From: Prorocentrum cordatum
Taxonomy: Eukaryota
Length of the DNA stretch: 64,000 nucleotides
Direction: 5' to 3'
Assembly: GCA_963575745.1 (NCBI GenBank)
Contig: CAUYUJ010000003.1
Coordinates: 1,364,001-1,428,000, forward strand
Shown here: positions 136 through 38,389 of the stretch, piece after piece
Layout of the letters: each line of letters opens with the position of its first letter
Numbering within the stretch: position 1 is the stretch's first letter
Program-made: the position numbers and the translations under genes
The notes under the pieces: generated by a model
Database searches by the model: none
Told to the model about the DNA's origin: nothing
The model's input: only the letters and a program-made list of their open reading frames with translations

Positions 136-199
136 AAAGACCGTCGAAAGTTTATGCTTATGCCACTTCTCCTCCTTCGACTCCATTCCTCTCGTGGGT

Positions 200-410
200 T
201 AACCTTCATGAGAGCCTTTGGACCTCCACGGCCCTATCCTAAGCGTGATTTCGACCGGATTTCGTCCAGATTTCGGCCACCCCTCTTTTATCCTTTCGTC
301 CAGATGTCGCCCAAATGTCGTCCAAATTTGGTGAACATGTCAACCAAATCCGACGAAGTCCAAACGGAATCACTAAAAAATCATTAATGTTGAGGCCCTC
401 TGAGGCTGCC
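200..410 (+). repeat. Interspersed repeat family R1, copy 1
   Basis: Shares ccttcatgagagcc...ctatcctaa.cgtg.tttcgacc...gatgtcgtcca...aaatccgac with 25620-25820, and partly with 10760-10930. Confidence 0.7.
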
Positions 411-1267
411 ATGTGACAGTTTTCCTTCCTCTGAGGCTCTGGGTACACGGGGGAGAGGGGGGTCGGGCGGGAGGTCACGGTAACGGCGGACGCAGCGTGC
501 ACCTGCCAGGGTGCGTCCGCGCCACCAGCGCATGAATCACCTGTGCTGTGTGCCCCCAGTATATAGAGGGAAGTCTAGGCCCACCTCCTAAAACTTACGA
601 TCGTTAAGGGTCATTGGGCGGGGTGTGGAGTGGTCCGGGTGACGAGCGTTATCCTGGGGAAGAGAAAAGAAACGTTCACCCCGAAAGACCACACAACCAT
701 CGGGGATCTACTGACCCGGGTCAATCCAGGCCCAGGCTAGTCAGGCATTGCAGGATCCTGCAGGATCCTGCAACCAGACCCGGGTCAATGCCACCCTGGC
801 GCTGCAGGACCCTGCGAGATCTGGCGCTCTGACTGACCCCCCTTTTGCATCGACCCCCGTCTCTTGAACCCCGCAACCACTCCCCCGTCTCCACCGGCCA
901 CGCGCCTGTGGGGTGGCTCCCCCGAGGGCCCTCCCGAGCGGTGAATCCGTCGGCTCCCCCCCACGGCACGGGGCGCTGGCCGCGCCCCGCGCCCGCCGCT
1001 GGCCGAGAGGGCGCGGGGGTCAAGGCGAGGGCGTGGGAAGGGTCTGGGTCGGGTGCTGCTGGAGACAGTTTTGCATGTTTCGGTGACGCAATCGCAACGC
1101 TGTCAGAAGGAACCCTGACTACGGAACGAGGCCCCTTTCTTCCATCAATGGAATTTCGGTCTCCCACGGAAAACCTAAGGAAACCTGAGGCACACTGTGG
1201 ACAATTAAGGAACACTGAGCCCCTCCCAACGAAAAGGGTTCCTTCTTCAGCGGCCCGACTGTAGCCC

Positions 1268-3695: not shown

Positions 3696-3958
3696 GGCCG
3701 ATAAAGTCAAGCGCGAACCCACTGGATCTTCTTCCGCCTCCACCTTCGGGCGACGTCGACCGACCACCTCACCGACCCTGGACGGGCCCATCTCGTGGTC
3801 CCAGGATCGGTGCCTTTGCCTACCTGGCCAGAAGCCAGGAAGTGCATGCACCGATCCTGCGCCAAGGCGGCCCCGCCAGGATCGGTAGGGAGGTCCGTCC
3901 TTCTGGGTGCCCCGATCGAAAGGACTATCAAGCCTGCTCGGAGGCTGGTGTGTTTTGC

Positions 3959-4012
3959 GTGCCAAGCGCAGGTAGCTTTCGCCCTCCAGGGACTCTTCAG
4001 CCGAAATGGCAC
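3959..4012 (-). ncRNA. Minimal type I hammerhead ribozyme (3' repeat of the PLE)
   Basis: Minus strand reads gtgcca-tttc-gg-CTGAAGA-gtcc-ctgga-gggc-GAAA-gc-TA-cc-tgcgct-tggcac. It has the CUGANGA and GAAA cores, stem II, a palindromic AGCU in place of stem III, a UH cleavage site, and stem I with an internal loop. Confidence 0.75.
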
Positions 4013-4099
4013 TGCGCAGAAGCATCGGGTGAAAGGTCGCTCGCATGTACAGTTTTCTAACAAATGCAGGCCCTACCCTCCCTGCCACTGCCTGGTTTG

Positions 4100-7390: not shown

Positions 7391-8947
7391 AGCGCTTTCT
7401 CTCCCTTCTCCTCCGCCTCGTCCTTCCCCCGCTCCCCCCACAAGGAGGATGTACAAGGAGGCGGGAGGAAGGAGGAACAGGGGAGATATGCGGGGCCAAG
7501 CGGACACACGCCTGAAAAACACGACTGTCGGCATGCTTCGCCAGAATTGCTGCTGTGAGATGGGCTGGTGGGGATACGCGAAGCGTAAAGAATTTCTGAG
7601 GGCGCATCTGGCTTGGGCCCCTTAGCCCTAGTGAACTTGAGCTTGTGGTATGTGACAAGCTCTTTGGCAAAATCTGCATTGGAATGAACCAAGTAGCGAA
7701 GAATGCCATCTTCTGGTACATGTGTATAACCTTTTGTCGTCTTTGCGCGACCGCCTGAGCTCGAGCAGTGCTAATGTCAATGTCTGCTTGGTGTCCAAGC
7801 TCCTGTATTTTGTCTCGGCATCTGTAAGCGCCTTGTCTCTCAGCTGTTCGACCTTGGACTGCTTCTCCAAGCGCCCGTGCGTCTTCGGGGGAGCGTCCCG
7901 AAGCAGAAACTCTACATACTTGGACGCCATGTCGTGGAGGTAGCCAAGGTTGGAAGCTGCGATGGGTTGACTGTTATGCCAACTCGAGAGTTTGTCTTGC
8001 AAGCGCCGCTTCACCGAATCTGGATTCACCTCTGCCGTAAACAGCTCCGTGCAGGCCTTCTGGTGCCGGACGATCAACTCCCAGCACTCTCTTGCATGCC
8101 TATCGCGCATGCTCTCCCATGCCTTCGTGACTGAGTAGTCCAACTGGTCTTGATTCTCACCCTCCTGAGGCACAGCACGTGCGATATGTAATATATATAT
8201 ATATGTCTTGGGACACTGCCAAGTGTATCTGCGCTCTGACTCAATATGGGGATGCTACTTGCCCTCTCCTTGCATCCGGTCGTATTTACTTTCTACTTGC
8301 ATCTGCGTCTCGTACGCCTTTAGCAAATCACGAAACTCTTTGCCAGACTCTCGGAAAATCTGTGCAGCTGTCGGCTCCACGTCTCGCAAGAGGTCGTCTG
8401 GGGAGCTGTACTTGTTCAGCTGCTGACAATCGAGGAGCCATGAAGGCTGTGCTTGCTGCTGCTGATTGGCGCTGTTCGTGCTCATCGTCTGCATTTGCTG
8501 TTGAAGTAGCTGCACCTGTTGTAGGAGAAGAGCGTTCTGTTGTGCGAGCAATTGTTCGACACTCATCTGCGGTTGCTGAACGCCCGCACCATGAACTGCA
8601 CCTGCAGGTTGAACTGGGACCGGCACGGCTGCGTTGGTCGGCTGCGCTGCCGGTGGAACGCTACTCGGCCTTGCACTGCTTGATCTGACACCATATGGAC
8701 GACGTTGATGAATATTTCCTCCTTGACACTATTGCTGCTCCTAACCGCTCGGACAGCGGTCTCGCGTCCGGTCCGCCAAGTGCTGCTGGAACCTCAGTGG
8801 CTTCTCTCGGCACGCTCACTGCAGCTGCGGCCGTGGATTCTCCCACATGCGCTCCGGTTCCATCCATGGCGGTGGCGACAGTCCAAATGTGATCAATCCC
8901 CCGATCGAAAGGACTACCAAGCCTGCTCGGATGCTGATGTGTTTTGT

Positions 8948-9001
8948 GTGTCAAGCGCAGGTAGCTTTCGCCCTCCAGGGGCTCTTCAGCCGAAATGGCA
9001 C
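8948..9001 (-). ncRNA. Minimal type I hammerhead ribozyme (5' repeat of the PLE)
   Basis: Minus strand reads gtgcca-tttc-gg-CTGAAGA-gccc-ctgga-gggc-GAAA-gc-TA-cc-tgcgct-tgacac. Stem II (GCCC/GGGC) is perfect. Confidence 0.75.
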
Positions 9002-9335
9002 TGCACAGAAGCATCGGATGAAACTGTACGTGCCCCCCGGATCGGTGCCTTCGCCCCCCGGATCGGTGCTTTCGCCCACCTGGACAAAAGCCAGGAAGGG
9101 TATACACCGATCCTGGGCCCGGGGTGGCCCCACCAGGATCGGCGTGGAGGTCTGACCCAGATGTGGACCCTATGAGGTCTGGACGTGTGGACCCCCTCCC
9201 CAAGACAAGGCGTCATTCTGAGCCAGCTCTTCACGGCCCAGGGGTCCTGGAAAAGGTTGTTGGAGGCTGAAAACTGCCAAACACCGTCCGACGTGATATT
9301 TGTCACGACACCATCCTGGTGCCCATCCTCCTTCA

Positions 9336-9548
9336 GAGGCCTCCTTGATGGGATCCGAGTAGACGAGGAACGAGGATCCCGACGTATCGCCGATGCATCA
9401 GCGATGCGCGATGCATCAGCGACGTCGGGGGTGCATCGGCGACGCCAGAGCGGAACAAAGCAGACTCCAAATCGAGCCGCATCGGCGATGCATCGGCGAT
9501 GCGATGCGGCGCTCTCCTCCGACCCCGTCTACTCGGACCCCACTTGGG
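9336..9548. mobile_element. MITE family R4, copy 1
   Basis: Inverted ends tccgagtagacg / cgtctactcgga and internal gcatcggcgatgcatc palindromes; homolog at 24670-24871. Confidence 0.65.
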
Positions 9549-10150: not shown

Positions 10151-10759
10151 GGATGCCACGGGAGCGCCACGAGGACGTATTTGGACGTGGGTTACAGTCA
10201 ACCCGCATAGTAGGGATGAGCAAACTTCCAAAGGGTACCCCTGCATCCTTGCCTCATCGGCCCATCCTGGGCGACTTTCGCTGGCCGATCTCGTTCGAAA
10301 AACGATAACGTGACCTTCCAAGGCCCTCGAATCCATACCGCCCATCCATATGATATGGGTTGACTGTAGGGTCAAGCGCCAACTTCGATACACTCGGCGC
10401 AGGAGCGAACGGGGACCGAAGGAGGGCCCGAGAAGACAAATGAGCGAGGGCCCCAGGAGAGGCACGGCAGCGCCACGTGGGCGGGGGGGGCAACTGGGGG
10501 GAGGGAGCATCGCCGACGGATCGGCGGCAGGACCCCGGCAGCAGAACCGCACGCTGCTGCAGGCTGCGAGGCGCCAGGAAGCGCCACGAAGCCAGATGGG
10601 ACGGTGTAGGCGAAGGGGGGGGGGCCAGCTCGGGGTGGGGGCACCAACTTGAATTGGGCGACGCATCGTCGACAGAGCGGCGGTAGGCCACCGACAGCGG
10701 CGCCGCACGTCCCAGGCCCCGGGAACGGGCCATAACCGTCATTCCGACTGGGTCTCCTC

Positions 10760-10930
10760 CACCTTATCTTCACTCTTTCGTCCAGATGTCGTCCAGATTT
10801 CGTCAAGATGTCGTCAAAATTTGGTCCAGACTTCGTTCGGATATTGACCGAATCCGACAAAACCAAACGAAACCTCCAAAACCGCAAGGAACTCTAGGAC
10901 CCTCTGAGGCTCCCATGAATGACCACAGAG
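10760..10930 (+). repeat. Interspersed repeat family R1, partial copy
   Basis: tatcttcact...cgtcaagatgtcgtc...ctctgaggctcccatgaa is shared with 200-410 and 25620-25820. Confidence 0.6.
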
Positions 10931-11204
10931 CCGCCACACTCGACGAAACGGCGACGGGCGTCATGCCTGTAGAGGGCCAGCAGGCAAACTCGAAATCAGG
11001 CAAAAAAGAACAGGAGGAGGGGAGAGGGGGGAGTCGGGAAGGAGGACCGGTGACCAGGGTGCTGTGCTCAAAACGAGAAGCCAACGCAAGAGGGTTGGGA
11101 GAAAGAGAGGTTGGCCAGGCGCGGAACACTCAAATTTTCACCACTTCCACTCGGCGCGAGGTGCACCGGCACCTGGATGACAGGAACCGAATAGAGAAAC
11201 TGGA

Positions 11205-11343
11205 CAGGGCTCGAGCTAAACCGTGTTTTTCGTTTTGGCGTCGGTTTCCTTCGCTCTGTTTTCCTGTATGTCTGTGCTGCGACACGAGATCAACACGAAA
11301 ACGGCACACGAATTCGCCAAAACAATGTTTAGCTCGGGCCCTG
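11205..11343. mobile_element. hAT-type MITE, second copy
   Basis: TIRs cagggctcgagctaaac / gtttagctcgggccctg; internal similarity to 10006-10150; TSD degenerate. Confidence 0.6.
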
Positions 11344-11836
11344 GAACTAACCCAGGGAGGGAAACGATGACCCGAATTCCTCGATGCGTCGCCGAGTGGC
11401 TCCGATCGGCGAAGAATGGGCCTTTCGGGGCCGACGCTTCGTCCCCTGAGCTTATCCCCCCCTGTCGGCGCACCGTGGCCTTCGGGCCTGAGCTCGGTTC
11501 GCCGGCGGCCGCCCGGGACGACCCGGGCAACCCCCGGAATGCTCTCAGAGAGGCGCAGCTGCTGGAAAGCATCCCGAAGCTGGCAAGCCGCCGAAAACCT
11601 ACAAATTCGGAAAACCTCAACCCACCGCCAAAACACGGCTGCCCCTGAGCATGGGGAAACTTAACGGTACCGATGCCACCACCCCCCAAACCTCTCCCTG
11701 GGATGCGTTCTGACCAGCAGTTCGAGGCGAGTCCAAACGTGGCAACGAGGGCATCACGAGACCCAAGAAACGAGAAACAATATAAGAGCAGCCGCATGGT
11801 CACAGTAGGACCTGGGCCACACAAGAAACATCCTTC

Positions 11837-12037
11837 AGTCGAAAAGAAGCCATCGGAGGATGATGAGCCCCGAGGCTGACTAGAATCAGATAAAGCCTCT
11901 TCCTCCACGCAATAGTTACTATAACCGGTGTCAAATCAGGACCCTGGCTAATCAGATCCTGGTGTCGACACCCTTGAACCAGGGCGGCCGCGGAAGTGTT
12001 TGCTCATGCTTTGCCTCCGCTCGCTGACGCGGCGGAA
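11837..12037 (-). repeat. 3' LTR (alignable part) containing a spliced-leader-like 22-mer at 11973-11994
   Basis: Aligns with 24346-24543 (catcggaggatg.tgagccc.gaggctga; ctggctaatc; atcctggtgtcgac; ttgcctccgctcgctgac.cggcggaa). It lies downstream of the pol end at ~12490. Confidence 0.65.
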
Positions 12038-12484
12038 GGTCCCTTTGAAGCTGGGGGGAGGAGGACGAAGCACATCGCAACGGCAAGGATCAAGGAGTAA
12101 CTCAAGATCTAAATGTTTGTATATATATATATACATATGTATATATATATATATATATCATCTGATGTCCTGCAAGATTATGTCAGCTTGCCAAGGGGCT
12201 CGCCTAACATGAGCGCCCGCTGGTCGGCAATTCAACTCACGCAGGAATGCGCGCGTGCGCTGACCGACGCAAGAGGAAAGGAGTGCGTGCCGACGGTCAA
12301 GTTCCGAGCAAAAGCACACGTGGCCAACAAGTGGGCCACAAATGTTCATCTATTCCCGACGGGAAGCTTCAGCTACAAGATGACAGTGGCCATGTCACGT
12401 GAAAACCCGCGACTGGGAGCCTTTTTTCCTGCGCGGTCCGCAGCCCCATCGCGGGGCAGGCTCGGAACTGCGTGCGCGCCGTGC

Positions 12485-14050
12485 TAGTGCGATGTGGCAC
12501 GTACCTCCTGACATCATGTTTGAATGACTGATGGCCTGACATCACTTCTAGCATGGAAGCACAATCCGGACTTCCCTTAGTTTGTCCGACTGCTGTCATT
12601 CCACGCGTGTCACACCACGGGCACAATATACTATATTTACATCCATCAATTGACCGGTCGAAAACATATATATATATATAAATATATACGCAAGAGTCAA
12701 ATACAAGATGCAGACTTGTTTGGGGGCTTACTGGACGGGGATTAAAAGACTGACTCGGTATCGATGGCCAGGGATACATCACCCTTTATGTTGCGCATTT
12801 CGAGGCTCGTCAGAGGGCCTAGGGGGCCCCTGCATTGAGCTCATGCAGCGCGACTATCGTCGGGCAGCCGCCCTCGAGACTGCGCGCCGCAGCTAGCGCT
12901 TCCGCTAGATAACTCAATGCACCTGAAGTCGAAGCGGCTTGCAGCAAGCATCCACGAGGTGGAAAACGTCTGCGCCGTTTTGCGTGATCCAACGCGTTCG
13001 CAGGTTTGCCTCGTGGATGCCGTTCCCATTTTCTTCATCGCCCGCATCTCCCGCCAAGCGAATGTTCATGGGCTCTCTCGTTGGAATGAAACGACTGAGA
13101 CCATGAGCCACGCCTCAGCGATGAGAACACATGCCGGCGCATCCCTCAGACCAATGAACACGCCGGTCAATCTGAACGGCTTTCTTCGGGCGCCGCCCCC
13201 TGTAGCTCGGGATTCTGGATGGCTTTCATCTGTTCGACGTCCTCACGTCGGCCCACGGTGACGTCGCCGCGCTGCAGTTTGCTGCGACGCACAGCGAATT
13301 TGGCACATGCGTGCTTATCCGGATGACATGTCCCCGACGTCGCCCCCACGCATTGCACGCGCTCGTCGATTCGAGCTTCCTCGCCGGACAAGTTTACATC
13401 GTCGACGTGTTGAGCCGTAATCAAGGTCGGGCTCACTTCGAACTCTCCGTTGCATTTCGTACCTTGGAGCCCGAATCCCCCTGCGATGCCCTGGGCATGA
13501 GCGAGAAGTCGCGAGAGTCACCCTTGCTGCCCGCGCCGCGCATCAGACCCTGAAGACAAGGTCTTGCCATGTCAAAAATGGCAAAGTCTGGCGGGGTTCG
13601 GAGCGCCGATGCAGAGACATGAGGGAACGCCAAACGCACTAGACTCCCCTTTTCTCCAGGGGCTGCCGCCAGCCCATTATAAGTTTGCCTTTGAGAAAGG
13701 CATTGCCAATATCCAGGGATTCGAGTATCAGATCCTTCTTGCGCGCTGCCGCGCTGGCCCAGAGTTTTTGGCAAGCTCGTCGCGCCGTGCCCGAGAGAGC
13801 TTCGACGTCGAAGACCCCGACGCCCATGAAGACTCGCAACGAGAGCGAAGCGCACCGCGCGCCCCAATCTCGCCCTTGTCCGAATCGGCGAATTGCCACT
13901 CGCGCGCGCATTCTTATGTCGCGCGCAAAAAAACCTTGATAGCATGCAAGCTGCGTCACTCAGCGTAAAAGAAATGTGCCTGGATCCCGGCTTTCGCAAG
14001 CAAGTCTTCATTTTCGACCACAGCGAGCTTGGAAACGATGGCTGCGCACG
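12485..14050 (-). pseudogene. Copia RT and RNase H, frameshifted
   Basis: LDIGNAFLKG (13639-13959 frame), HVDD (13167-13436 frame), and WCDTRGMTAVGQTKG (RNase H 'ADxxTK' tail, 12369-12782 frame). Confidence 0.8.
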
Positions 14051-14999
14051 CCCTTGCCGCGGCTGTGTCCGCGTCTCGGAACTGATGATGTTGTTATGAT
14101 GAGTATAACCTTGGCCATGGCGGTTGTGAAACACAAGTCGAAATACCCCCCATGCCAGTCGGAACCGAGCGTCTGATTATCGTCGTACTCGCAAAGCCCG
14201 AGCCTGCTGCCGGGCCCCTGAAGCAAGTTATCTTGCTCCTAAGGCATCGTGGAAACCAGGGTGCATTCGTCGGGTGCCATCTGCGCGGGCACAGCCTATA
14301 GAGCTGGCAAGTAGTGGCTGTCCAAAGGCTCCTCGCGTTGCAGCGGTAATCCTGTCCCAAGCTCGCAGGGCCAGGTCCTCCGCGACGCGCGCGCCCAGAA
14401 CTTCCTCAGTCGCTTCCTGGATGGTGCGAAGTCGTCCTGCGCCAGTGCCAATGGCGGAACGTTCGGGGTCGCAATATGATGGTCGATATTCCTGGATGTT
14501 GCCCCACATGTTTAGGCAAGTCCGCATCAAATCCAACTGAGGGCTTGGCTTGGTTGGCCAATGGATTATCCTGTGCCGGTTGCCGCCAGTAGCCGTTGTC
14601 GCACTGTATGAGTATTCTGCTGTTGGCATGGGCGAAATGTGGAATCTGTGTTAAATCTTACAAATCTTAGCAAGGCGCACTACAACTACGTTCTCAATCC
14701 TGAAGTAGTTCCGGACAAGGTACTGCAGTGCAAGATGTGCCTTTAGGTATACTTTGGCTTCCAACAGTCATTCGCAAGTCGCCTCGCGAGTCGGGGGCGC
14801 GGCCGAACAATGGCTGGTTGCCAAGCCGCCAGACCAGCAACGAATGTGACCATTGTGCGCATGGCGGCATTGACAGATCCTGAATCACGCACCACAAGAA
14901 CTTCGATGCACAGCGTGTGCCGGACGCTGGAAGAACGCATTGCAGCTGACTTCCTACCCGCTTGTAGTATTGCTTCTCATCGGACGTGTACATTGCGCA

Positions 15000-15930
15000 G
15001 CACGAGGAACGGTCCACTACATTCTCCCCATTCCATTATCCTTGTTTGCTGCAGACTGGTGGTATTCAACTAGGTCTCCAGGTTTGTAACGATGCTGCCC
15101 AGCTTGGCGCGCGGTTGTCTTCAATGCTCGGCTGGCTTTCGCCGCTGCCGTTGCCTGCGTGGTCGCTCCTATGCTAACCTGCCGTGCCTGTTGTTCCCTG
15201 CTGTGGTCAGACGTTTCCGTCGGCGTATCATGGTCAAGAATACGAAGATCAGGTAGACAAGCGAGTTGACATCCAAGTAACGCACTGCGCGGATGCACGC
15301 CACTGAAGAATGTAGAAGCATTGTTCACAAATGAAACTTCGGCAGAGAGTCCTGTAAATTGCATTGGCATGCCCCCGTGCTTCAGGCATTCCTCCACGAC
15401 GCGCGTCGTGCCGCGTAGGAGACCAATCCAAGATACCACGGCGCTTGCGCGTTGGCGGGGAATTCGCACGCGAAGGTCAACGCCCTATTCCCCAGCATAA
15501 GTTGCGCTGCGTCGTTGTATAGGGCACCTTCCCCGTCGGAGCAAGAGGACCTCGGCTGGATTGCGCCCCCCAGCACAAGCGATGGGCATCTATGATAGCA
15601 AGCGTGGCCCCGCCAGAAATCCCCTGTCCAGCGCTCCACCTGGCGCGTCGATCACAGATGTGGAAGACGACGTGCTCTCTTGTATGGAACATGCAGTCGC
15701 ATTCCGCTTCCTCGTTGAGGCGACCTGGTACTCCCACTCAAGTCATGGCGGAGTCTCCAGGATTTCCCCACGCCCGACACTCTCTGCAGGTGACGCATAC
15801 CTCATTGATCACGATGCGCAGCCAAGTGATGTCGAGACGAACCTTCGATCGGATCAGCCTCATCTTGGGTTCCTCTGCGCGGTGCCACCAGGTGTAGTTT
15901 ACGTAACACACCTGGGGCAACTGATGGACC
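15000..15930 (-). pseudogene. Copia integrase, frameshifted
   Basis: HHCC-like WWHR...CVTCRECRAWG (15738-16073 frame) and SDGEGAL (second Asp of DDE, 15382-15639 frame). Confidence 0.7.
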
Positions 15931-17069
15931 GTGGCTCCTGAGGCTCTGTAGACTGATTTGGGGGCGTCGAGTCGAATCCAGTCTCGGAGCTGTGATGGCC
16001 CCGAGGTGCGCCCGCTTCCTCTTGGGTCGCCAGGTGGCATCGCGGCTCCCCGTGCTCTACCACGGCTGCCCATCGCCTGCTCAACTCGTTCAGAGCCGAG
16101 CCGTCTCCACGCGAACGCACAGGGTCGCGTCGCGCGGCTGGTCGTGGCGCTTGTGCTTGTGCGTCCCCGCTGCTACCGGCGCCTGAAGATGCTGGCGCTG
16201 GCGCGGGCGCTGGCACTGACGCCTCCGCAAATTGCCTTGCCGACGGCGGCGCCGGCAGGTTTGCGCCGCAGTCTGGCGGCAATTTGCGGGGCACGGAAGA
16301 CCTGCATTTCCCGAGAATAAGCAAGGGTCCTGGTACATTGTGACCGTTGTCCTTCTTGACTTTTGCACTGTCTCAAAGAATGACGGACTTGTCGCGCCAG
16401 CGGCAGGACATGGAATTTCGCGCAGGTTTAAGGTTTGGCATGACAACATTGTCCGCGCAAGCTGGGCAAACGAATCCTCTTGGTGGCGCTCTGATGATAG
16501 CGCCAGCAGCTGTTCTAGGGATCATCGGATCGTCGAGGTCGCATCAATAGTCTACATGGGGCAATGCTGGGTAGACCGGCGCGTCGCCGCGCTCTCATTC
16601 CAGCGTGGAACCATGCGCGGCATTGCCTCGCATGGGTCGCACAGCTGCTACGCACGCTGACTGCGCGCGACGGGTGCTGACCTGCGCATGGACGTGCTTT
16701 CTGTCGCAGTTAAATTTCCTGACGAGTTGCACTTAAAGATGGGATCGTTGACCACGATCCCAATCGGATTCCTCAAAAGAGCGCCGTCTGCCGTCTTGGG
16801 GCCAGCAGCGCGTTGACCCGCGATGATCTTAAGCGCTTCAGGGCGCACGGCTAACCACTTCAACCCAAAGATGGATCTGGCCCACTCAAGTGCCGGACAG
16901 CTGCTCGCCGGCAACATGTCTTCTGAGTCTACCTGGGACATGAGCCACAGTGCCAATGTGCGATACATGGCAAGTCCCCCCGATAATGTTGGAGCCAAGT
17001 GTCGCAGTTGACCCGGGCATTGGAGGACGACGGCAATCAATCCAGTAGTCCTGCAGGTCGGCCCGACAA

Positions 17070-20000
17070 AAAAAAACAATCTCAACATGGCAACTGCGTA
17101 AACGCTGCACTGCAATTCCCTCTACGTCGCAATTGTCTAGGTCAGGCCCCACCCGAAGTTAAGCCGCGCTTGAAAGCCAGCTCGGCGACGCCGCCGCCCC
17201 CGCCGGATGTCAATCCAAGGCTGCGCGGGCGCATGCGCGCAACATGTAAGCGCGCATCCTGCGCATCATCGCGCACGGGCGGGGCAAGGGACAAATATGC
17301 GGGAAGACCAGGCATGACAGCGTGCATCTTGCGGGCTCTACCCTCGACAAGTAGATTACGCATTCTCCCCCAATGCGGCCCGGCGAGCTTGCCAAGGGCG
17401 CGAGCGCACCAATCCGCGGGGGTCAATGCCCACGCGCGCACTGCGCGGACAGGGCCTCCCGATGCGCGATGCGATCGCATAAGAAGCCCCGTTGGCGGAG
17501 AATGGCGGCAGCCTCTCGCTGATGCTCGACATCGAATGCTCTAGAGTGAAATTGCGCGCGCGCGTCCGCGCCCCCTGCAGGCCCCTGCGCGAGCACGGCG
17601 GGCGCGGGCCCATCGCCGCCCCGCCTTCCCTGGCCTGTCCTTTACTGCTGCGCGGCAGCCCCCGGCATCCGGGCCGCGTCCAGCCTGAAACCGAGCGGCG
17701 TCGAGGCTACTGTCGGGGCTTCGGCGCTGGCCTCGGCGAGCGGCCGCGCGCATTCCACCCTCCGCGCGGAATGCAGAGGCGCCGGGACATGGATTTCTCC
17801 ATCTTCACGCCTATGGCACCCTTACCAAGCATAACTTGTAGGGCTCGTTTTCTGGCATGATCAGCACCTCCTTGCCGCGCTCGAGCCAGACTACGGCCTT
17901 CTTGTCTTGAGCTGCCTCGAGGCCAAGGATAGCCGGCAAAGCAATGCCACAACCATTGGCGATGTTTGCAGAGTATGCGTCCTCCTAGATAATATCCTGA
18001 CACGAGCGCGCTATCGGCAAAACACCACGGGCGTCGCACGGTGCAATCCCCTCCCTAACTCTATGGACATCGATGCGTGGACGCGCGGCCTGGGTCAATA
18101 CCTTGCCCGTCCACTCGACGGACTTGCGGTCGAGCTCCAAAGCCGCTGCATTGGCGCCCACTGCGTCTATATTGGAGCCGGAACGAATAGCAAGCTGGTC
18201 CTGACATCCGATAGCCTGGTCCTCTGGGGGTGCCTCGCCAGCGTCTGGACGTCTGCGCATTTGCAATCTCTGCGCTCGGATTCAGACATGTATATATAAC
18301 TATAAATATATACATACATACATGTCCGTACATGTTACCAAGCCGTCTCACGTGTTATGTATTCGCTGGTGAGTTCATCCCCGTGGTGGGTGGGCCCCAA
18401 GTGGGACACAAATTATGCGCCTCGTCCTCGGTGATCGGCGCACTCGCGAATGGGTCGCGCGCCCCCGCGGGCAGCGCGAACAGGGCGCGTCGTTCGCCGT
18501 CGTGGATCATCAGCGCTGTCGCCTCGCCCGACGCCTGTGCCTGACATTGCTCTGCGCGGGTCGCTCGCGGGGCGCTGCCTCAGGGCGCCTTCACCCGTGC
18601 CCGTTGCAAAGCGGCCCGCCGCGACGAGGGCGACTTGCCGCGCGCGCCCCAGGCGGCGCGGCACAGGAATCTCCATTCGTCTTGCCAAGTCCCCATCGCC
18701 TTCGCATGAAGGTCCGACGCTGCTTCACGGCGAAGCCAAATCCCCATGACTTTGCTCGCCCATGGACCATTATCCGAGAGAGGGGGTCGGCGGCAGGGGG
18801 CGAAGCCCTCGCTGATATCCATGGGCGTCGGAGGCGGACCCTGCAGCGTCAGGTAGTTCGGGTGCGCAGCGAATGCCAGGGTGAACGGGCTCGCTCGCCC
18901 ACCCCCGCGCCTCGTGACTGGGGCCCCGGCGCCCACTCCCAAATCCCAAGGGGGTTGCCATTCATGGGTGCTGCTCGCCGTCAGATGCAGCGCCTACAGT
19001 TCGTCGGCGATGCGTCGCCGCTGCTGCTCCACGAACGTCCTCTGTCATCTTACGGGCAATGTCCCTGGCAGATATGCCCAGGGCCTCTGACGGCGGCGCG
19101 CCGAACGGCGGCGTCGCCCGCGTTGCCGACTTCCTCGGTGCGCCGAGCTCCACTGGAGAATTCACGCGTTTCCAACGTGGGCCGGCGGCCGCTGGGCTTG
19201 CGCAGCGCCGCGCCTGAATGCTGCAACTGTTGCGGCTGTTGCTGTGGCCCGCGGGTCGCGTTGTAGTGGAAGATCCAGTCGGCTCCGATCTTCGAGCACA
19301 AGCGCGGCGATGTCGGCAGGCGCAGGCATAGCCCGCGATTGCTCTGACTGCCCGTCGCCAGGCCCGCGCAAGTCGCCCTGCTGCACGGCGCCCATCATGG
19401 GCGCATCTTGAGTGCGATATTGCAGATCCAATATAAAAACGCAGTCGTTGGGCGCACCCCTGGCGTCGCCGAGCGGATGCTTGGGCACCGCCCGCGCACG
19501 TGCGTCGTCGAGCTCAATCTGCGAACCGCGAGCCTTCTCATCGATCGAACTGAAGACAGGGCCATTCCAGACATTGCCCCGAAATGGGGCCAGTATGTCC
19601 CGCCAAATGTGCGATGCTGAAAAGAAACACAATGCCGCTGCGACCGTCGCACAGCAGCGAGCTGTTCTCAGATTCCCAAATGTGCACACTATTTCCCAGC
19701 ACCCTCGGAACCGATGGGAGGAGCACGCAAATCTCTGCGCCGGGGCGCATGCCGAAGCGAATGCGGGATCGAGCGGCACATGCGGACATCCATGAACGAC
19801 TTGGCGCCCGCCCCGCTTGCTGGCGCTGCGCTCTCCCCTGCATGGTTGCCCAGTATCCGAGTTGGGCAGCGGCGCCTCCCACGTCGCCCCATGCGCCAAC
19901 GCGCCCGGCAAACCTGTCGGCGCAAGCTCGCAGGCGCGCCCATCCCAGGGAAGAAATGCCGAGCGGTTGCCCGACTATGGAGCTCGGGAGGACCGCCTCC

Positions 20001-22510
20001 GTCACCACGATAGGAGAAAACAACCTGGAAGCAGAGGTTTTGTCGGCCCTTCCCGCCCACCATCTGAGCGACACGGGCCTGGATGTAGCAGCGGAACAAG
20101 ACGCCCTTGTCCATGAACACGTATTCGACCGCGCCTGTCCTCTCCCCGCTGACCCAGCCGCCTGTCGATCGCGTCGTGCATTTCCATCCGGCCATCGAAC
20201 CCGTCACGTTAAACAGCAGACTCGACAAATCGGTGGCTTAGCTGGTCTCTGCGGAAAGACTCATGCTAGCATGCTCTAGAAGACCAAATCGGATTGGCTC
20301 CTTTCGCGTTGCGCGGCGCGTTGCCCACGAGCGCGCCGAAACGTCGTTGCTCACCCGCCGTCTCCAGGAGGTTGATGGGCCTTGACGGGCGAGGGCCATG
20401 CCTGACCCCTGCAGTTCCCGCCCGCGTAGATTCTCGCAGGTCCGGCGACGCGGCGCCCGGCGCAGCGCGTCGCCATCAGAGAGACAACTGGCATCGGCAG
20501 ACGACGCACTCGCAGCCTGGCGCAGGCAGGCACCCCCGCGGGGCGCGCCGCAGCAGGGGCCCCCGCGGGCAGGCCCAGGAGCGGCCCCAGCGCGGGGTCG
20601 GCCGAACCAGCTGCCTGGCCAGGCGCAGGAGGGGCGCGCGCGAATCGCGCTCCCGCTGGCGACGCCCTGCGCGGCGGCAACTCGGATCGGCCTGCCCGCC
20701 CACTTGTGCTAAGTGGGGCCGAGAACGATATGGTGGATGATATGGTCGCTGACGCGGCTCGGCCGGCCCCGGGATCCCCCCCTTCAAAGGATCCAGGATT
20801 GGCTGTCCATCCGCAACGTTCTCCTCGATCACCTCCGAGCGCGTCGGATGCGCCTTGTCCGAGCAGCGCGAGGCGGCGCAGAATCTGGCGCGGCGCGCTG
20901 CCACCGCCATCTGTGTCTGAGGGGCGGCTGGGCGAAGACTCATGCGAAGAAGCCGGAAATGGGCTGGGGTTCGCTTTGGAGGGGCTCCCTTACTCTTGCG
21001 ACTTGTCTAAACTCGATGAGCCCTTACCCTTCTCGAGCTCGGAGATCGCCGCCGCGGCCAATTCCTCGGCTTATCGCTCTGGTGCAATCGAGCTCTCAGC
21101 TGTCGAGTGATTGCTCGGCGCTCTTCACCGTCGAGAGCCTCCGGTCATCTTTCGTCTTGCGAGGTGCCTCGCGTCGCCTGTCCTCTTCCATCCGCTGGCG
21201 CAACCTCTTGGCCATGTGATTCATCATCTCTTTCACCTGAATGTTTCTTGATGGAATATCTTCACTATGAGTAAGGGCCAAACCAACGACTCCTCCGTCG
21301 CGTCGCCGTGGCCGCTGGCCAGGAGGGGGCGGGGCCCCGCGCGCGCTCCTCGCCCGCGTCGCAGCTCCCCTGGCGGCCATGGAGGTGGCTCTCTCAAGTG
21401 CGATAGCGAGTGCAAGACGAGCGCGTTCACGGCGCCATGCGCGCGAGCTGAAACTCGCCCGCGCCTCACAGTCCGCACGCGCGCGCACTGGCCCCCTCAT
21501 GCGCGCACGCCCGCGACCGGGGTCGCGCGGCGGTCGCGTCGTGGCGCGGTGGATCTTGATCCGACGGTCGTCGGGCAGCGCTGCGTGCGTCTCGTTGGTC
21601 TGATCGGCGGCCGCTTGCAAGTGCGCCGCGACTTCGGCAACGCGAAGGGCCGGAGCATCCACCCCACCTCCATGCCCCTGGTTCCACGCGCCGGCACCCC
21701 CCTGGGACTCTTGGACTGTGGTTCACGTGAGCTTCACGCAGACAGACGCGGTAGGTTTCGGGACCCTCAATGGCAGCGCGCTCGGCGCGGCGCCTCTGTT
21801 CTGCTTCCGCCGCGCCGGCGAATGAAGCGCGGGCGAGGTCGCAGCGTTGATCCCTCCATACCTGCGACACATTACCCCACCAACGACAGTCACGGAGGCG
21901 TCGTCGTGCGCCCGCGCCGCGGGTTCGCGGCGGCTGCGCTGCGTCGCCTACCTCTCCCCCCCCCCGACCCCAGCCCGCGCGGCGCTCTGCGATGTCGCCG
22001 TCGAAGACTATTCTACAATGGGGCGGGGCGATCCCTGTGCCCTGGCTGAGACTTGCGAAGTGATGAGGCGCCTGCGGATTGCCCAATATTTGGCAGACGT
22101 TGCCGTCGCCACCAGCACGTCGTTGCCGTCTCTGCCACGCCACCGGCAAGGGGCACCGAAAGCATGTCGCCCCAGCTCGTTGCCGCGCGCAGCGCCGATT
22201 CCCTCTTGAGCGGCCGGCGCGGTCGACGCTGGAGACGACGGGAGTCGGTTGCGAATCGCCCTGCGCCACGAACTCGCCGATCTGCATCGCGTCGCCGCGC
22301 CCCATCTCGACGCCGAACTCCTGAGAAATTGCACGGAGCTTTTCGTTCAAACGCTGTCGGGGCGCGACAGCATGGTACCAGAAAATCGGGGAAAAAACCA
22401 AACGCTGTTCAACGTATCGTTGCAAGAAGAAATCAGACTTAGACGCGCTGGTTCGCTTGCTGCAAAGAAGTGGTCGTAGCCTCTGAAAATGCTGAACACG
22501 CACCGCACAA
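17070..22510 (-). mobile_element. Degenerate DIRS-like tyrosine-recombinase retrotransposon nested in the Copia element
   Basis: RT-like FILDLQY...DIAALVLE...QRD..AFRR (~19160-19600); RNase H-like LELDRKSVEWTGKVL (~18000-18200); YR tail RPCP...GLTSGGGGVAELAFKRG...RRGNCS (~17100-17500). It separates Copia gag from pol. Confidence 0.55.
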
Positions 22511-22514
22511 TCCC

Positions 22515-23830
22515 TATCCCCCCCCTTTCCCCCGGCTGCACAGCGATGCAGGAAGGTTCGGGGGCTCGCGTGCATTGCGCAACATGGGACTGCCATCCTT
22601 GCCGGTGGAAGCGCGACCTCGCGTCATACCTTCACCTCCAAAATGACATCGCGTCGCACTCGTCGCTAGATAAAGACGCCATGAACGAGGCGACGCCATT
22701 GCCGCGCACCCTTCGCTTCCCCACGTCCGTCTTCGCCCTTGCCCCGCCCTTCGGCACGCGGCGCAAGTCTGACATCTGCGCGCGAGACGCAAAGGCTTCT
22801 GCCTGACCCTCCACCCCACCTCCTCTTGGCATGGTGCGCGGCAAACTATAGGAATTCTGTCCTCTTGCGATCAGTAAGATGCGCGGGTATGTCTGGTTGA
22901 TCTTTTGACCCTGCTGCTCACGACGATTCGGCGTCGACGCGCGCACCGGAGTCGAACGACAAGGCAGGCTCAGCCAGGCCGCGTTGGCCCCAGAGGGTGG
23001 CACTCGGCAGCGCTGGGTGAGTAGCTGCTTCCCAAATCCAATCCGCGCCGCCAGCTGCCCATCTGCCAGACGCCTGGCCGGTGAGAAGGGCTGCGCCTTC
23101 AGTGGGGTTGTTTTGGCGATGTGCTATGAGGAGTAGTCGCATCGACACCGGCGCCGCTAAATACCGCATGGTCTGATTGAGAGTTGGCGCGGAGCGACGC
23201 GCTACCGCGCCCTCGCCCAAGCACCCCACCGATGTGCCCAGGAGATCGTTCCGAGAGATGGCCGAATGATAGCATTCGCTCAAATCGTGCATCATGATAT
23301 ACCTGGGCCCTGGGCATTCGGTGGCTTAGCAGCTGCACCATATGTGGCGCTCGGACGGCCCGCACTTGAAGCGCACGAAACAAGATTGCGGGCAATATCT
23401 GTAAGTTGCGAATGTCAAATACAACAGATTGGGCCTCTAACTTGGCCGTCTCAAATCTCGCCAATGTTGCCTCGATCCTTTCCAGAAAGCACACTGAAGT
23501 CAATTAGTCGTGTGCCTATGTCGAGTTGACGTTCGTTTTTTCGGTGCTCGAACTTGTCACTTAATGTATACATGATGTATGTCACTGGATCGGTTCTGGC
23601 ACTATTACTCTACACGCCGTAACTGAAAATGTACGATCGCATGCGCAATGCTATTATTCGCGCTAGTCCTGGGTGGCCTCGTTGGATGGTGACTGCTTGT
23701 TGTTGAAGTGTAGAGCGGCCGATGGTGACGTTGAGCCACGCGTGGACCTCCTGGGCATAGGTCCCCAAGGGCACGTTGCCCGCAAGTTCCCAATGAGGTT
23801 ATCTAGTATATGTAACGCGATCTGCACCGC
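22515..23830 (-). pseudogene. Copia gag with C-terminal zinc-knuckle remnant
   Basis: PHWE...YAQEVHAWL..., DPVTYIMYTLSDKF, ERIEATLARFE, GHLSERSPGHIG, DSGARVDAESS and GKDGSPM...C occur in order, directly downstream of the PBS and leader. Confidence 0.6.
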
Positions 23831-24328
23831 GCTGCATGTGCCCCACAGCAAACCCGAAGATAACCCAGCTGATGCCGAATCTGGTGATGTGAAGATCGTG
23901 ACCCAAGGTATCGGAATCCTTCGGTTGTGTTATGGTCTCTGTGGGTGGCGAGCAGCTGTTAGACATTGTAAGAGTCTTGGCTGCATGCGTCCATGCTTGG
24001 GACAGCGATCGAATGGAAAGTCGGCGTAACTGAGCCCGTTGCCAAGCTGAGTGCACGCATTGCGCGGAATGTAGCGACGTAGGGCCGTGCTGTATGCACC
24101 CACGATCGAAGTAGGTATGTCGTTGGTAGAGTGGGTTCGCGTGCTGGCATCGGCGAGTCCACTGCTGGATAACAGTCCATTGTTGAACATTGGAACCGAT
24201 GCGGGGTTCTATGTGCCAGCTTCCAAGTTCTACTCCCCGAAAGGACGTCGGCGGATGGTAGTCCAAGCTGGATATGCGTATTGCGCCGTGGAAAATTGCA
24301 AGCAATAGAGCTAATCACACAAGTGCGT

Positions 24329-24345
24329 AACCAGCTCCGCTACCA
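24329..24345 (-). promoter_or_regulatory. Primer-binding site complementary to the initiator tRNA-Met 3' end
   Basis: Minus strand TGGTAGCGGAGCTGGTT lies immediately 3' of the 5' LTR; the canonical eukaryotic iMet PBS begins TGGTAGCAGAG. Confidence 0.75.
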
Positions 24346-24543
24346 AGTCGAAAAAAACATGCATCGGAGGATGGTGAGCCCTGAGGCTGATGCAGAAGCA
24401 GATGAAATCTTTCTCCCTACACAATAATACCCCGAGTCAAGTCATGGTACTGGCTAATCCAATCCTGGTGTCGACGTCCTTGAGCCAGAACGGCCGCGGA
24501 TGCGCTCGTTCCTGCGTTGCCTCCGCTCGCTGACACGGCGGAA
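24346..24543 (-). repeat. 5' LTR (alignable part) containing a spliced-leader-like 22-mer at 24479-24500
   Basis: Homologous to 11837-12037 and abuts the PBS. TCCGCGGCCGTTCTGGCTCAAG matches DCCGTAGCCATTTTGGCTCAAG at 18/22. Confidence 0.7.
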
Positions 24544-24669
24544 TATGCCCTCCGCCGACCAAAACAGACAAAACGTCCAGGGGGGCCCTCCCCAGGATGC
24601 ACAAGAACATCCAACAGCACACGAAGAACACTAGGGCACCCTCCCCGAACCGACCTCGATCGATGTTTT

Positions 24670-24871
24670 GAGGCCTCCTATATGGGGTCCGAATAGACGG
24701 GATCGAAGGATGGCGCCGCATCGCCAATGCATCGCCGATGTATCGGCGACGTCGGCGATGGATCAGCGACTTCGGTGTCGGGAAACACGGGCTCCACATC
24801 GAGCCGAGCCGCATCGTCGATGCATCGGCGATGCGGCGAGATATCTACTCGGACCCGATCTAGGAGGCCTC
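24670..24871. mobile_element. MITE family R4, copy 2
   Basis: Perfect 11-bp TIR gaggcctccta / taggaggcctc, plus inner gggtccgaataga / tctactcggaccc. Confidence 0.7.
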
Positions 24872-25619
24872 GAATATGATACCTTGGTCCCACTGTACCT
24901 GTCCCTCCTCTGACCCTGATCAAAAAGGGGGGACGAGGCTAAATATCCGCTCAAAATCGGTTCCCCCGACAATCCTCCCGGGCTCCCATCTGGTGCAATT
25001 TCTCGCCCCAGGTCCGTCTCTGACAGTCCCGGGGACGGGTGGCAAATGGTTGCCTTTTCCTCCTCTAAGGCGAAGCCAGGACGAGGATAAGTTCGGGAAT
25101 ATGTGAAATCCCGCAGCTCCGGAGGATGGCGGCCTCCTCCGAGCGCTCTGGAACGCTCTGACTTCGCTCCTGAGCACTCTGGAACGGATTTATCCTCGTT
25201 CTGGTCCCGTTTCCTCCTCCACGAACAGCGCACCTCCCTTAGAGCTAAGCGGAGGGAGCGCGAGGCGAAGGCGGCGCGCTCGGCGTGCCAGCAGCGCCAG
25301 CTGCACGAGAAGCAGGGGCACCAACACGGTCACCATGGCGAGCAGCGTGACCTCGCGGACGGCAACTTTCCCTGCTGGCTGCCCCTGACGACGAAAGAAT
25401 AGCACACACACACACACACCGTTACCCATAAGGGGGTCGGAGGGAAGAGAACTGCACTATGGGTATGGGTGTGGGTTGTCGGACCTCGGGGGAGGCTCCC
25501 GTTCGAGCGGGCAACTCCCGTCCCACAACACGCACCCATGCCTCTTTCCGTCCCCCCTATGGGTATGGGTGTGTGTTTATTGTTCGTCATCTGAGGAGCT
25601 ATCGAGTAGAGGGAGGCCA

Positions 25620-25820
25620 GGTGAGCCTTCATGAGAGCCTCTGTGGACCTCCGCAGCGCTATCCTAAACGTGGTTTCGACCAGATTTCGTCTAGATTTCG
25701 ACCACCCTATCTTCACTACATTTCGTCAAGATGTCGTCCAAATGTCGACCAAATCCGACGAAATCCGGACGAGTTCACGGAAATGTGAGATCCTGTGAGA
25801 CTCCCATGAAGGACCACACG
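25620..25820 (+). repeat. Interspersed repeat family R1, copy 3
   Basis: Aligns with 200-410. Confidence 0.7.
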
Positions 25821-26209
25821 GAGCAGCGATCGACCAGAGAACCAGGAGGAATAGGACGATAGTGCGGAGAAAGAGGAGGAGGAGGAGGAGGAGCCCCGAG
25901 AATGACGACAGAGTGCCTGGAGCCGGTAGCAGCAGCAGGAAGACGAAGACCAGTCGCTGCTCTTGCCTCGGGAAAGCCTGCCCCTGGCAGTCACTTGTCT
26001 CAAAGGTGAAAAGATGCCCCGGTCGGATGGAGGGCTACCCTGATCGCACCTGTGCGTGCACCATCTTGGGGAGCTTACCAGGTCCAGGTACAGGTGGCGA
26101 AGTTGGAGGCTGGAACTGTAGGGCGACATCGATCGTTTCCCAAACAGTGTTTGCATTTAGGGGTTCCCTCTTCTCTCCGTTGAGAAATTGGTCAAGTGTT
26201 AAAAATTTT

Positions 26210-37585: not shown

Positions 37586-38389
37586 AAGAAACAGTGCGTG
37601 AAGCGATAACGTAGCGCGTGCTTCTCCACAGAAGCTCTTTCGGTATGTGGAGCGCGGTGCGCTGAGGGCCGCCAAAGGGGTTCCAGTGCTGCCGGCGGGT
37701 ACTCGCTACACCTGAACTGGGATAACATGCGTTCCATGGACCATCGCTTGCCGCAAGCCCCCAATCCAATACCGTAGGCCATGTGATTTGGCGCATCGCG
37801 CCCCGCGATCCGCGGAGCGCGATTCTCTTCGCGCCGACGCGAGACCACCCTGGAGAAGAGCGGCTTTCCGACCGACGCCGCGGCGGGGAAGCGTGATAAT
37901 CTTCGCGCTCTGGAGTACCCAGACTGCGCCTGACGGATGCTCGCGACCTCGCCAACAGGCAGCAGCAACGCGCGAACGAGAAGAGCCCGCAGCAGCACGC
38001 GGGGCGGAAGAGCGCGGCCCACCCCCTCAGCCGCGCGGCTCTGGGGCTTCGTGCCGAGTGCCGAGCACGCGTGCCAGGGGCAGCGGAGGTCCATGGAGGT
38101 CTGGAGAGATCTTCTGAGGCCTCCCGAGCGCCCCAGAGCTCCCCAGAGGTCCCCTGCGTCACCAAGTCTCGCGCCCCGCGCCCCGCGACGCGCAGTCATC
38201 CTCGCGCCCTCGCGCCGCCGCCCTCGAGAAGGGGTGCTTTTCCCAACCATCCTGTGGTGTTGGGTCCTCGATTTGAAGAGTCAGCGCCCCGCGTCCACTC
38301 CCTCCTTTTTCCTCGCCCTCCTCCCATCCCTGCCTCTGCCCTCCGCAGGTAAAGAGTGTCAACGCATCCTACCACGTTTCGATGCCCAA

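Follow-up and report, generated by a model that had tools for sequence, protein, structure and literature searches.

A decayed spliced-leader-like sequence in an old pair of direct repeats of Prorocentrum cordatum

Can a dinoflagellate retroelement carry the host's spliced leader (SL) within its own terminal repeats? An LTR retroelement bearing the leader could be tested as a candidate for the agent that reverse-transcribes dinoflagellate mRNAs; a copia-type driver of retroposition lacks direct evidence, according to excerpts of Song et al. 2017 (PMC5585692). A first-pass annotation of a 64,000-nt stretch of the P. cordatum genome (hereafter, the window) proposed such an element, reading two repeats as LTRs that each hold a sense copy of the dinoflagellate leader (DinoSL). 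If such an SL-bearing LTR family existed, any host mRNA would have 22 nt of terminal homology to those younger members whose SL is still intact, and strong-stop DNA could then jump between them, giving the mass retroposition of dinoflagellate genes a route with a concrete enzyme and template. What this locus appears to add is another degenerate relic of the SL within a short, old repeat, surrounded by gene-free repeat-mosaic DNA, and no leader-carrying retroelement.

Repeat searching and gapped blastn identified the two repeats as one direct, same-strand pair, and these are the only two copies in the window:

24543->24346, minus strand: repeat copy A (the 5' LTR of the first-pass annotation), 198 nt, with ends TTCCGCC...TTTCGACT
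12037->11837, minus strand: repeat copy B (its 3' LTR), 201 nt, 77-78% identical to copy A
24521..24543 (copy A) and 12015-12037 (copy B), minus strand: 9-bp hairpin at the 5' end of the repeat (alignment columns 1-23), kept in both copies

By gapped blastn, 158/206 columns are identical (77%) with 13 gap columns, while MAFFT yields 153 identical positions, 29 transitions, 13 transversions and 9 gap columns (K2P 0.26). The start-to-start spacing from copy A to copy B is 12,506 nt. Both boundaries are sharp, as the 300-nt outer flanks align like shuffled sequence (58/300 and 106/300 shuffles scored at least as high as the real flanks). The best-kept columns of the alignment are 1-27, 69-82 and 160-188, and a T run lies shortly before the 3' boundary in both copies (TTTTTTTCGACT and CTTTTCGACT). 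No relatives of the repeat were found among 17 metagenome loci.

Measured against DinoSL (DCCGTAGCCATTTTGGCTCAAG) in sense orientation, each copy contains an SL-like 22-mer:

24500-24479, minus strand: SL-like 22-mer of copy A, TCCGCGGCCGTTCTGGCTCAAG, matching DinoSL at 18/22 positions, with mismatches T5C, A6G, A10G and T13C
11994-11973, minus strand: SL-like 22-mer of copy B, TCCGCGGCCGCCCTGGTTCAAG, matching at 15/22 positions, with the four mismatches of copy A plus T11C, T12C and C17T

These positions and scores, and the restriction of the mismatches to transitions, are as the first-pass annotation had given them; its approximate figures for shared sequence (40 bp upstream of the leader and 135 bp downstream) also proved sound, the measured lengths being 43 nt upstream in both copies and 133 nt (copy A) or 136 nt (copy B) downstream. 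The SL purine/pyrimidine pattern fits both 22-mers, and therefore every mismatch is a transition (7/7 distinct mismatches over both copies), in agreement with the A/B spectrum of 29 transitions : 13 transversions. The only matches to this pattern in the window are the two 22-mers, where 0.06 would be expected, and none of 100 shuffles contained two matches; likewise, the 21-nt SL core was seen once with at most 4 mismatches as compared to 0.04 expected per simulated window. The 22-mers thus very probably go back to a genuine spliced leader rather than resembling one by chance.

All four of copy A's mismatches (4/4) also occur in copy B, so the common ancestor of the pair already stood at 18/22. 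This ancestral 22-mer reads CGCGG for CGTAG and GTTCTGG for ATTTTGG, and by this reconstruction the AG acceptor (positions 6-7) and the TTTT core were gone before copies A and B parted. The first-pass annotation had asked whether a consensus of young copies would lie closer to the SL; the ancestor of this pair is no nearer to it than copy A, which leans against a functional reading. There is no sign of a working SL in either copy.

The pair is not alone in its surroundings. Other short direct repeats, similar to it in age and spacing, make the window a mosaic, including:

197-413, 10741-10934 and 25620-25827: repeat X
9336-9542 and 24667-24874: repeat Y
3910-4034 and 8899-9023: repeat Z

With these repeats nearby, two same-strand copies 12.5 kb apart do not stand out in the window. 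Repeat Z holds a further 15-mer resembling an SL relic (CCATTTCGGCTGAAG) on the strand that also carries the A/B 22-mers, and three sites in the window lie within 2 mismatches of the 15-nt relic, against 0.145 expected. SL relics thus appear to be common in this stretch. A 90-bp tandem array at 38373-39010 also has a loosely SL-like core and shares CCGTTCTGGC with copy A; its likeness to the repeat is not significant (nhmmer E = 1.8).

The explanation that we favor, with confidence that is about evenly balanced, is that an SL relic became fossilized in a dispersed repeat that is old and of low copy number. The repeat unit of ~200 bp would embed a full-length, decayed copy of DinoSL 43 nt from its 5' end. 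For the origin of the unit by retroposition and the mode of its copying, we infer the following course: an SL-bearing RNA would have been reverse-transcribed and integrated, by the established dinoflagellate 'mRNA recycling' route; the ~200-bp stretch around the relic would then have been duplicated at least once, as part of the patchwork of short direct repeats found here; and copies A and B would since have drifted apart, chiefly through transitions. The relic would have no present function, and the tRNA-like 12-mer beside copy A (see below) would be a coincidence. Since both copies have 43 nt in front of the relic, a simple retrocopy beginning at the SL does not describe the unit. Other observations also sit less comfortably with a fossil relic: the sharp boundaries at both ends are more what one would expect of a mobile unit than of a segmental duplication, the 12-mer follows copy A without a gap and its motif is rare, and the repeat end may be shared, together with the 30 nt that include the tRNA-like motif, by contigs of run X1.

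These same observations make up much of the case for the alternative that survives best, which we regard as possible but doubtful: that the pair represents the terminal repeats of a very old minus-strand LTR-type retroelement, non-autonomous or gutted and primed by initiator tRNA-Met, that took an SL into its LTR. The SL could have come from reverse transcription of the element's own trans-spliced RNA, or from an SL-capped host mRNA packaged alongside, through template switching to its 5' end, and it would have been degenerate already when the element inserted at this locus. Besides the same-strand repeats with sharp ends, two features flanking the copies bear on this alternative:

24345-24334, minus strand: primer-binding-site (PBS)-like 12-mer TGGTAGCGGAGC, abutting copy A with no spacer
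12040..12046, minus strand: purine run AAAGGGA, 7 nt, located 2 nt upstream of copy B, the sole candidate polypurine tract (PPT)

The first-pass annotation described an iMet PBS directly following the 5' copy. The 12-mer does directly adjoin copy A, whereas its naming after the initiator tRNA, like the term LTR for the repeats, is an interpretation and not an observation; TGGTAGC is a motif that we take to fit the eukaryotic initiator tRNA. It occurs three times in 128 kb (the window, both strands) and TGGTAGCNGAG exactly once, and for the motif to fall, in the correct orientation, 0-5 nt from a predetermined boundary the probability is ~2 in 10,000, a figure that takes no account of there being several repeat pairs to pick from. 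ARAGORN identified no tRNA genes in the window, and Rfam identified no tRNA-like stretch at the 12-mer. In run X1, three contigs among the matches listed cover the window from 24316 upward and then continue as unlike sequence; thus, at least one other genomic place may share the repeat end and the 30 nt with the tRNA-like motif, an arrangement such as the 5' LTR-PBS junctions of a family would have. The size of the putative element is not absurd given the LTR-flanked, ~10 kb copia-like elements of Symbiodinium (PMC5776459, in part).

However, three usual hallmarks of an LTR retroelement are wanting, those of its ends, its target site and its internal genes. The repeat ends are TT...CT and not TG...CA; both copies start TTCCGCC and finish TTCGACT, and since these ends are identical in both copies the TT...CT state is ancestral. 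No terminal inverted repeat is present at the repeat ends, and no exact 4-6-mer target-site duplication (TSD) flanks the pair at offsets 0-3 (the nearest is GCAT vs GGAT); loss of a TSD through decay is possible at the age of the pair. The 7-nt PPT candidate is embedded in pyrimidine-rich surroundings: the best 12-nt window near copy B has 8 purines, the 25 nt preceding AAAGGGA are pyrimidine-rich, and the sequence further upstream is C/T-rich. Moreover, an R region starting at the SL would require a U3 of only 43 nt, and further families of direct repeats, comparable in age, lie around the pair.

The sequence between the copies also tells against an element:

12038..24345: inter-repeat stretch, 12.3 kb, complex and GC-rich, with no detectable protein domain

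Among the 25 minus-strand ORFs of at least 120 aa between the copies, Pfam identified no families. When the cutoff was 60 aa (n=153), 148 ORFs gave two matches, both under the curated cut-offs, and the remaining 5 gave none. The six read-through frames (X at stops) likewise contained no families at E <= 0.1, whether gag, protease, RT, RNase H or integrase. No homologue of the longest ORF between the copies was found, and the inter-repeat ORFs display no GC bias by codon position (GC1 ~ GC2 ~ GC3). Coding capacity between the copies is therefore absent, even though decay of ~13% per copy should normally leave findable pol remnants. The stretch contains one TA microsatellite, and its depth in run X1 (0-6.3) is at the single-copy level except in bins spanning 18255-19288, which also speaks against a retroelement interior. 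Missing gag and pol genes are compatible with a non-autonomous derivative. LARD and TRIM elements are such derivatives of LTR retrotransposons, and the length of the repeat is within the range for TRIM terminal repeats.

Given the TT...CT ends, the missing TSD and the 12.3 kb empty of gag/pol or any other Pfam family, with a candidate PPT of only 7 nt, we find the LTR status that the first-pass annotation assigned to the repeats weak. The boldest form of that reading, in which the repeat would be the LTR of an initiator-tRNA-primed, non-autonomous dinoflagellate family that acquired the SL at or near the start of R and whose strong-stop DNA could jump onto SL-capped mRNAs, seems to us very improbable. 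Because the case for an LTR is thin, the locus has the look of a fossil left by RNA copying, not of a new mechanism; its value is as a lead, with a repeat profile and a PBS-like junction that lend themselves to genome-wide searching.

A decayed transcription unit of the SL-RNA type (an 'SL-like' pseudogene) that spread to two places is a further alternative, one that we consider unlikely. The repeat would then consist of a leader upstream, the SL exon, a former intron of ~130 nt and the T run near the 3' end, the last of which is indeed present in both copies, and its 198-201 nt fall within the 103-292 bp of SL genes in Fugacium kawagutii, where, in the portion of the report cited, SL transcripts carry sequence upstream of the SL and 'SL-like' genes have no GT/GC donor (PMC6616646). 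Nevertheless, AAG is followed by GA or GG in our copies, leaving no GT/GC donor, the Sm-type motif ATTTTGG is not retained, and the copies are neither tandem nor beside 5S rRNA. Folds of the whole repeat show no gain over shuffles in either copy (z -0.10 and -1.56), and Rfam gave no match, although the presence of a dinoflagellate SL RNA model in Rfam is not assured. The loosely SL-like core of the 90-bp array and the CCGTTCTGGC that it has in common with copy A would fit such a pseudogene, but for the insignificance of that likeness. Last, a chance match in GC-rich repeat DNA, unrelated to trans-splicing, is very unlikely: an event at 0.04 per window will turn up somewhere when very many windows are scanned, and the 22-mer is less well kept than the best columns of the repeat, but transitions at 7/7 mismatches have a probability of (1/3)^7 if the sequences are unrelated as compared to ~0.69^7 under real decay, and repeat Z supplies a second, independent relic-like motif on the same strand.

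Among the closest known systems, as far as the cited excerpts describe them, is a dinoflagellate +ssRNA virus with DinoSL at its 5' end (Levin et al. 2017, cited in PMC9651163). As in that case, a selfish element is said to carry the host leader and is read as mimicry or capture; unlike the viral RNA transcript with its near-exact SL, our sequence is a DNA repeat with a degenerate SL and no sign of use. SL RNA genes, in the part of PMC6616646 drawn on here, have an exact SL exon followed by a GT/GC donor, an Sm-type site and a tandem or 5S-linked arrangement. The repeat resembles the SL and 'SL-like' genes of F. kawagutii in spanning a few hundred bases, some of them upstream of the SL, and, as in the SL-like class, in lacking a donor, but those units carry an exact SL or several SLs, whereas here a single 18/22 copy, not in tandem, is known from DNA only.

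SmTCL1-4 are Ty1/copia-type LTR retrotransposons of Symbiodiniaceae with near-identical LTRs, and the word 'spliced' is absent from the available text of the paper describing them (PMC5776459). Our pair shares with SmTCL, TRIM and LARD elements the direct repeats, here ~12.5 kb apart, and a tRNA-like TGG... motif right after the upstream copy. Unlike the SmTCL copies, it has no integrase, RT, RNase H, TG...CA ends, TSD or convincing PPT, and its repeats are only 77% identical.

Close counterparts are also found in the genomic DinoSL relics of retroposed transcripts that attest mRNA recycling (PMC3229502, PMC5585692, PMC12014239 and PMC7245778, each in part), which are abundant, occurring in >20% of genes in two Symbiodiniaceae genomes according to the excerpted text of PMC5585692. 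The relic described here differs from those in lying inside the copied unit, behind 43 nt present in both copies, and not at its 5' edge, in having no gene or ORF with a coding signal downstream, in the lack of a tandem truncated relic beside it, and in the loss of the TTT(T/G) motif, which is mostly retained per Song et al. (PMC5585692, in part). It agrees with them in being a mutated, sense-oriented DNA copy of the leader that has decayed by point substitution, with relic-like motifs nearby on the same strand.

Both members of the repeat pair contain a 22-nt stretch resembling the dinoflagellate spliced leader (SL, or DinoSL; DCCGTAGCCATTTTGGCTCAAG as given in PMC12014239 and PMC7245778). 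The first-pass annotation had reported matches of 18/22 and 15/22 with transitions as the only mismatches, and this was confirmed at the positions below.

Repeat pair and spliced-leader-like sites
24543 to 24346, minus strand: copy A, 198 nt, previously termed the 5' LTR (direct-repeat search and gapped blastn)
12037 to 11837, minus strand: copy B, 201 nt, previously termed the 3' LTR (direct-repeat search and gapped blastn)
24500 to 24479, minus strand: 22-mer of copy A, TCCGCGGCCGTTCTGGCTCAAG, 18/22 to the leader
11994 to 11973, minus strand: 22-mer of copy B, TCCGCGGCCGCCCTGGTTCAAG, 15/22 to the leader

Only two sites in the window fit the purine/pyrimidine pattern of the leader (0.06 expected), and because these are the two 22-mers, every mismatch in them is a transition; among all substitutions between copies A and B, transitions account for 29 of 42. 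Mismatches consisting solely of transitions are what the decay of a real leader is expected to leave and would be very unlikely in an unrelated sequence, and judging from the sequence we consider SL ancestry of the 22-mers highly probable. A point absent from the first-pass annotation is that the mismatches are common to both copies: all four of those in copy A (T5C, A6G, A10G, and T13C) recur in copy B alongside three further ones (T11C, T12C, and C17T). By parsimony, the common ancestor of the copies would already have been 18/22 to the SL, this ancestral 22-mer having CGCGG in place of the leader's CGTAG acceptor and GTTCTGG in place of ATTTTGG. Such an ancestral state argues against upkeep of an exact leader, at least in this lineage. 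Were the copies LTRs, and hence identical when inserted, the leader would have been degenerate already at insertion.

The reading we favor, and hold with roughly even confidence, is a non-LTR dispersed repeat carrying a fossil SL relic. Gapped blastn aligned the copies with 158 identities in 206 columns, and in the MAFFT alignment 153 columns are identical, 29 differ by a transition, 13 differ by a transversion, and 9 contain gaps (K2P 0.26). The best-kept columns (1–27, 69–82, and 160–188) are kept better than the 22-mer. The boundaries are sharp, as the 300 nt past the downstream ends and past the upstream ends are no more alike than shuffled sequence (flank scores reached by 58/300 and 106/300 shuffles, respectively). 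A tandem gene or 5' UTR duplicate is rejected, there being no likeness past the 200 nt of the copies. A structured RNA is likewise disfavored: the repeat folds no better than shuffles, and the alignment of the two sequences has four both-sided changes, too few to weigh. A two-copy profile search found no third copy in the window. Beyond it, a scan of metagenomes with an 18-nt conserved block returned 17 loci, all 17 matching in the seed region alone under nhmmer, and a scan of viral contigs with a 26-nt conserved block returned no matches. Three sequencing runs (X1–X3), of which X1 is the one DNA run listed for this sequence, with a share of 0.32, were mapped onto 10500–26000 at 80% likeness. 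They showed very high-copy repeats close outside the pair, at 24580–24842 and 11547–11720, with no variants inside either copy among the rows listed and no empty-site joint (11836–24544) among the 15 joints listed.

The DNA around the pair is a patchwork of short direct repeats that are similarly old, in which a same-strand pair 12.5 kb apart is unremarkable.

Other direct-repeat families in the window
197–413, 10741–10934, and 25620–25827, plus strand: repeat X, three copies, 67–83% identical
9336–9542 and 24667–24874: repeat Y, partly palindromic, very high-copy (high-copy stretch beside copy A, 24580–24874)
3910–4034 and 8899–9023, minus strand: repeat Z, 125 bp, 93.6% identical

Y lies ∼1–1.4 kb before X on both sides of the pair, which may be either an insert in an older Y–X array or itself a piece of the mosaic. 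Repeat Z, which shares the pair's strand, holds CCATTTCGGCTGAAG, a 13/15 match to a truncated (15-nt) DinoSL relic, and three sites in the window have at most two mismatches to this 15-mer, against 0.145 expected; from these matches, SL-derived debris seems to be common in this stretch. The last 15 nt of a longer segment of Z, GCAGTGCCATTTCGGCTGAAG, are the 13/15 match, and a 102-bp block near Z (80% identical) flanks one copy of Z on one side and the other copy on the opposite side. Repeat X has an internal short periodicity (GACGAAATCTGGACGA-like), and its copies are joined by X1 contigs. Repeat Y, which starts ∼40 nt upstream of copy A, is 66% identical to its own reverse complement. It is extremely abundant in X1, where single places are covered by up to 100 contigs and reach a summed word depth as high as ∼24,000. 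A second high-copy stretch in X1 (11547–11720; 51–63 contigs, summed depth 1,700–3,700) lies ∼120 nt downstream of copy B and occurs just once in the window. Much of the window's second half (27700–56200) consists of long arrays whose repeat periods are 3, 9, 12, and 21 bases, including GAC/GTC, CCT, and CAG-CAC-rich types and inverted 21-bp-period arrays (41371–41769 versus 43862–45203); these yield long ORFs on both strands without a Pfam domain. No protein domain was found among the ORFs scanned in the first 32 kb, nor any Rfam match there. Of the 45 ORFs of at least 250 aa, 26 were scanned and gave one Pfam match, far under its cut-off, and 72 of the 250 ORFs of at least 110 aa outside the pair and its interval, these 72 being in 1–11.4 kb and 24.8–32.1 kb, gave none; the 178 left out lie mostly in low-complexity arrays past 32 kb.

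That the pair represents the terminal repeats of a single old LTR-type element, as the first-pass annotation proposed, is a minority possibility. The copies share a strand and have sharp ends, and a tRNA-like, PBS-like motif, TGGTAGCGGAGC, starts at the first base past copy A (24345–24334). The sequence TGGTAGC, which corresponds to the 3' terminus of initiator tRNA in eukaryotes, is present three times in 128 kb, against 4.4 expected; TGGTAGCNGAG is present exactly once. The chance of a PBS-like match falling so close to a given boundary, at most a few bases away, is ∼2 in 10,000 before correcting for the repeat pairs that could have been chosen. The first-pass annotation had picked this pair from several. 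Three X1 contigs cover the window from 24316 upward and then run into unlike sequence, a hint that the repeat end and the 30 nt with the PBS-like motif recur at one or more other loci. A tRNA pseudogene beside copy A was rejected (ARAGORN, no genes in the window; Rfam at E ≤ 10, no tRNA match), as was an element in reverse orientation, since on the plus strand 12037 is not followed by a TGG-type site, nor is 24346 preceded by a purine tract. The PBS-like motif is the one strong point for LTRs; a further four hallmarks are either missing or weak. Both copies begin TT and finish CT without a terminal inverted repeat, no target-site duplication of 4–6 bp was found around the pair at offsets 0–3, and copy B is preceded by a single purine run, AAAGGGA, in pyrimidine-rich surroundings. 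Finally, no Pfam family rose above its cut-off in the 12.3 kb between the copies by any of three routes: the 25 minus-strand ORFs of at least 120 aa gave none; 148 of the 153 ORFs of at least 60 aa gave two sub-cut-off matches (Beta-prism_lec, 16.9 bits versus 25; DUF7921, 16.4 versus 27), and the remaining five gave no match; and six read-through frames with X at stops gave no family at E ≤ 0.1. At ∼13% decay per copy, pol remnants should normally still be detectable, so any LTR element here would be non-autonomous or gutted. The longest ORF in the interval (385 aa) has no homologue, GC1, GC2, and GC3 are about equal in its ORFs, and its repetitive content is one TA microsatellite. X1 depth there is at unique-sequence level (0–6.3) save for two bins spanning 18255–19288. 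These bins are deep in all three runs, whose coded labels indicate different organisms; simple sequence that is low in complexity or widely shared is thus a likelier cause than a family specific to this genome. With an SL at the start of R, U3 would measure 43 nt, which would be unusually short. The LTR label is, on balance, unlikely at this locus.

Origin of the repeat from an SL-RNA-type pseudo-gene is improbable. Its unit length falls inside the 103–292 bp range of Fugacium SL genes (PMC6616646), and it has sequence upstream of the SL and a T run near its end, the splice donor having been lost; however, that absence of a GT/GC donor, the lack of tandem arrangement, and RNA folds no better than shuffles all count against it. 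At 38373–39010 (plus strand), a tandem array of ∼7 units of 90 bp, each with a core that loosely resembles the SL (consensus CCGCACCCGTTCTGGCACAC), may represent either degenerate SL-like genes or mere coincidence. The 10-mer CCGTTCTGGC of copy A, with the same non-canonical G10 and C13, recurs in one unit, and the nhmmer likeness to the repeat is not significant (E = 1.8). Chance likeness to the SL is very doubtful, with 0.04 matches of at most four mismatches to the 21-nt SL core expected per simulated window. No site in the window itself has three mismatches or fewer.

The mechanism earlier proposed, in which a trans-spliced element RNA would have fixed the SL at the U3/R border of the LTR and would allow pairing with host mRNAs, is here unlikely on balance. 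Should the repeat be an LTR, capture would be a simpler origin for the relic, with reverse transcription switching template to an SL-capped RNA at its 5' end. An SL inside an LTR was not found described in the literature searched, which covers few subscription journals and includes portions of PMC3229502, PMC12014239, PMC9651163, PMC7245778, PMC6616646, PMC5776459, PMC3942190, PMC5585692, and PMC11453091; as a text string, the 11-mer matched only unrelated papers. Song et al. describe the reverse transcriptase behind retroposition as unknown and a copia-type driver as lacking direct evidence (PMC5585692). The locus is most fittingly classed as a further degenerate DinoSL relic, lying within an old short repeat.
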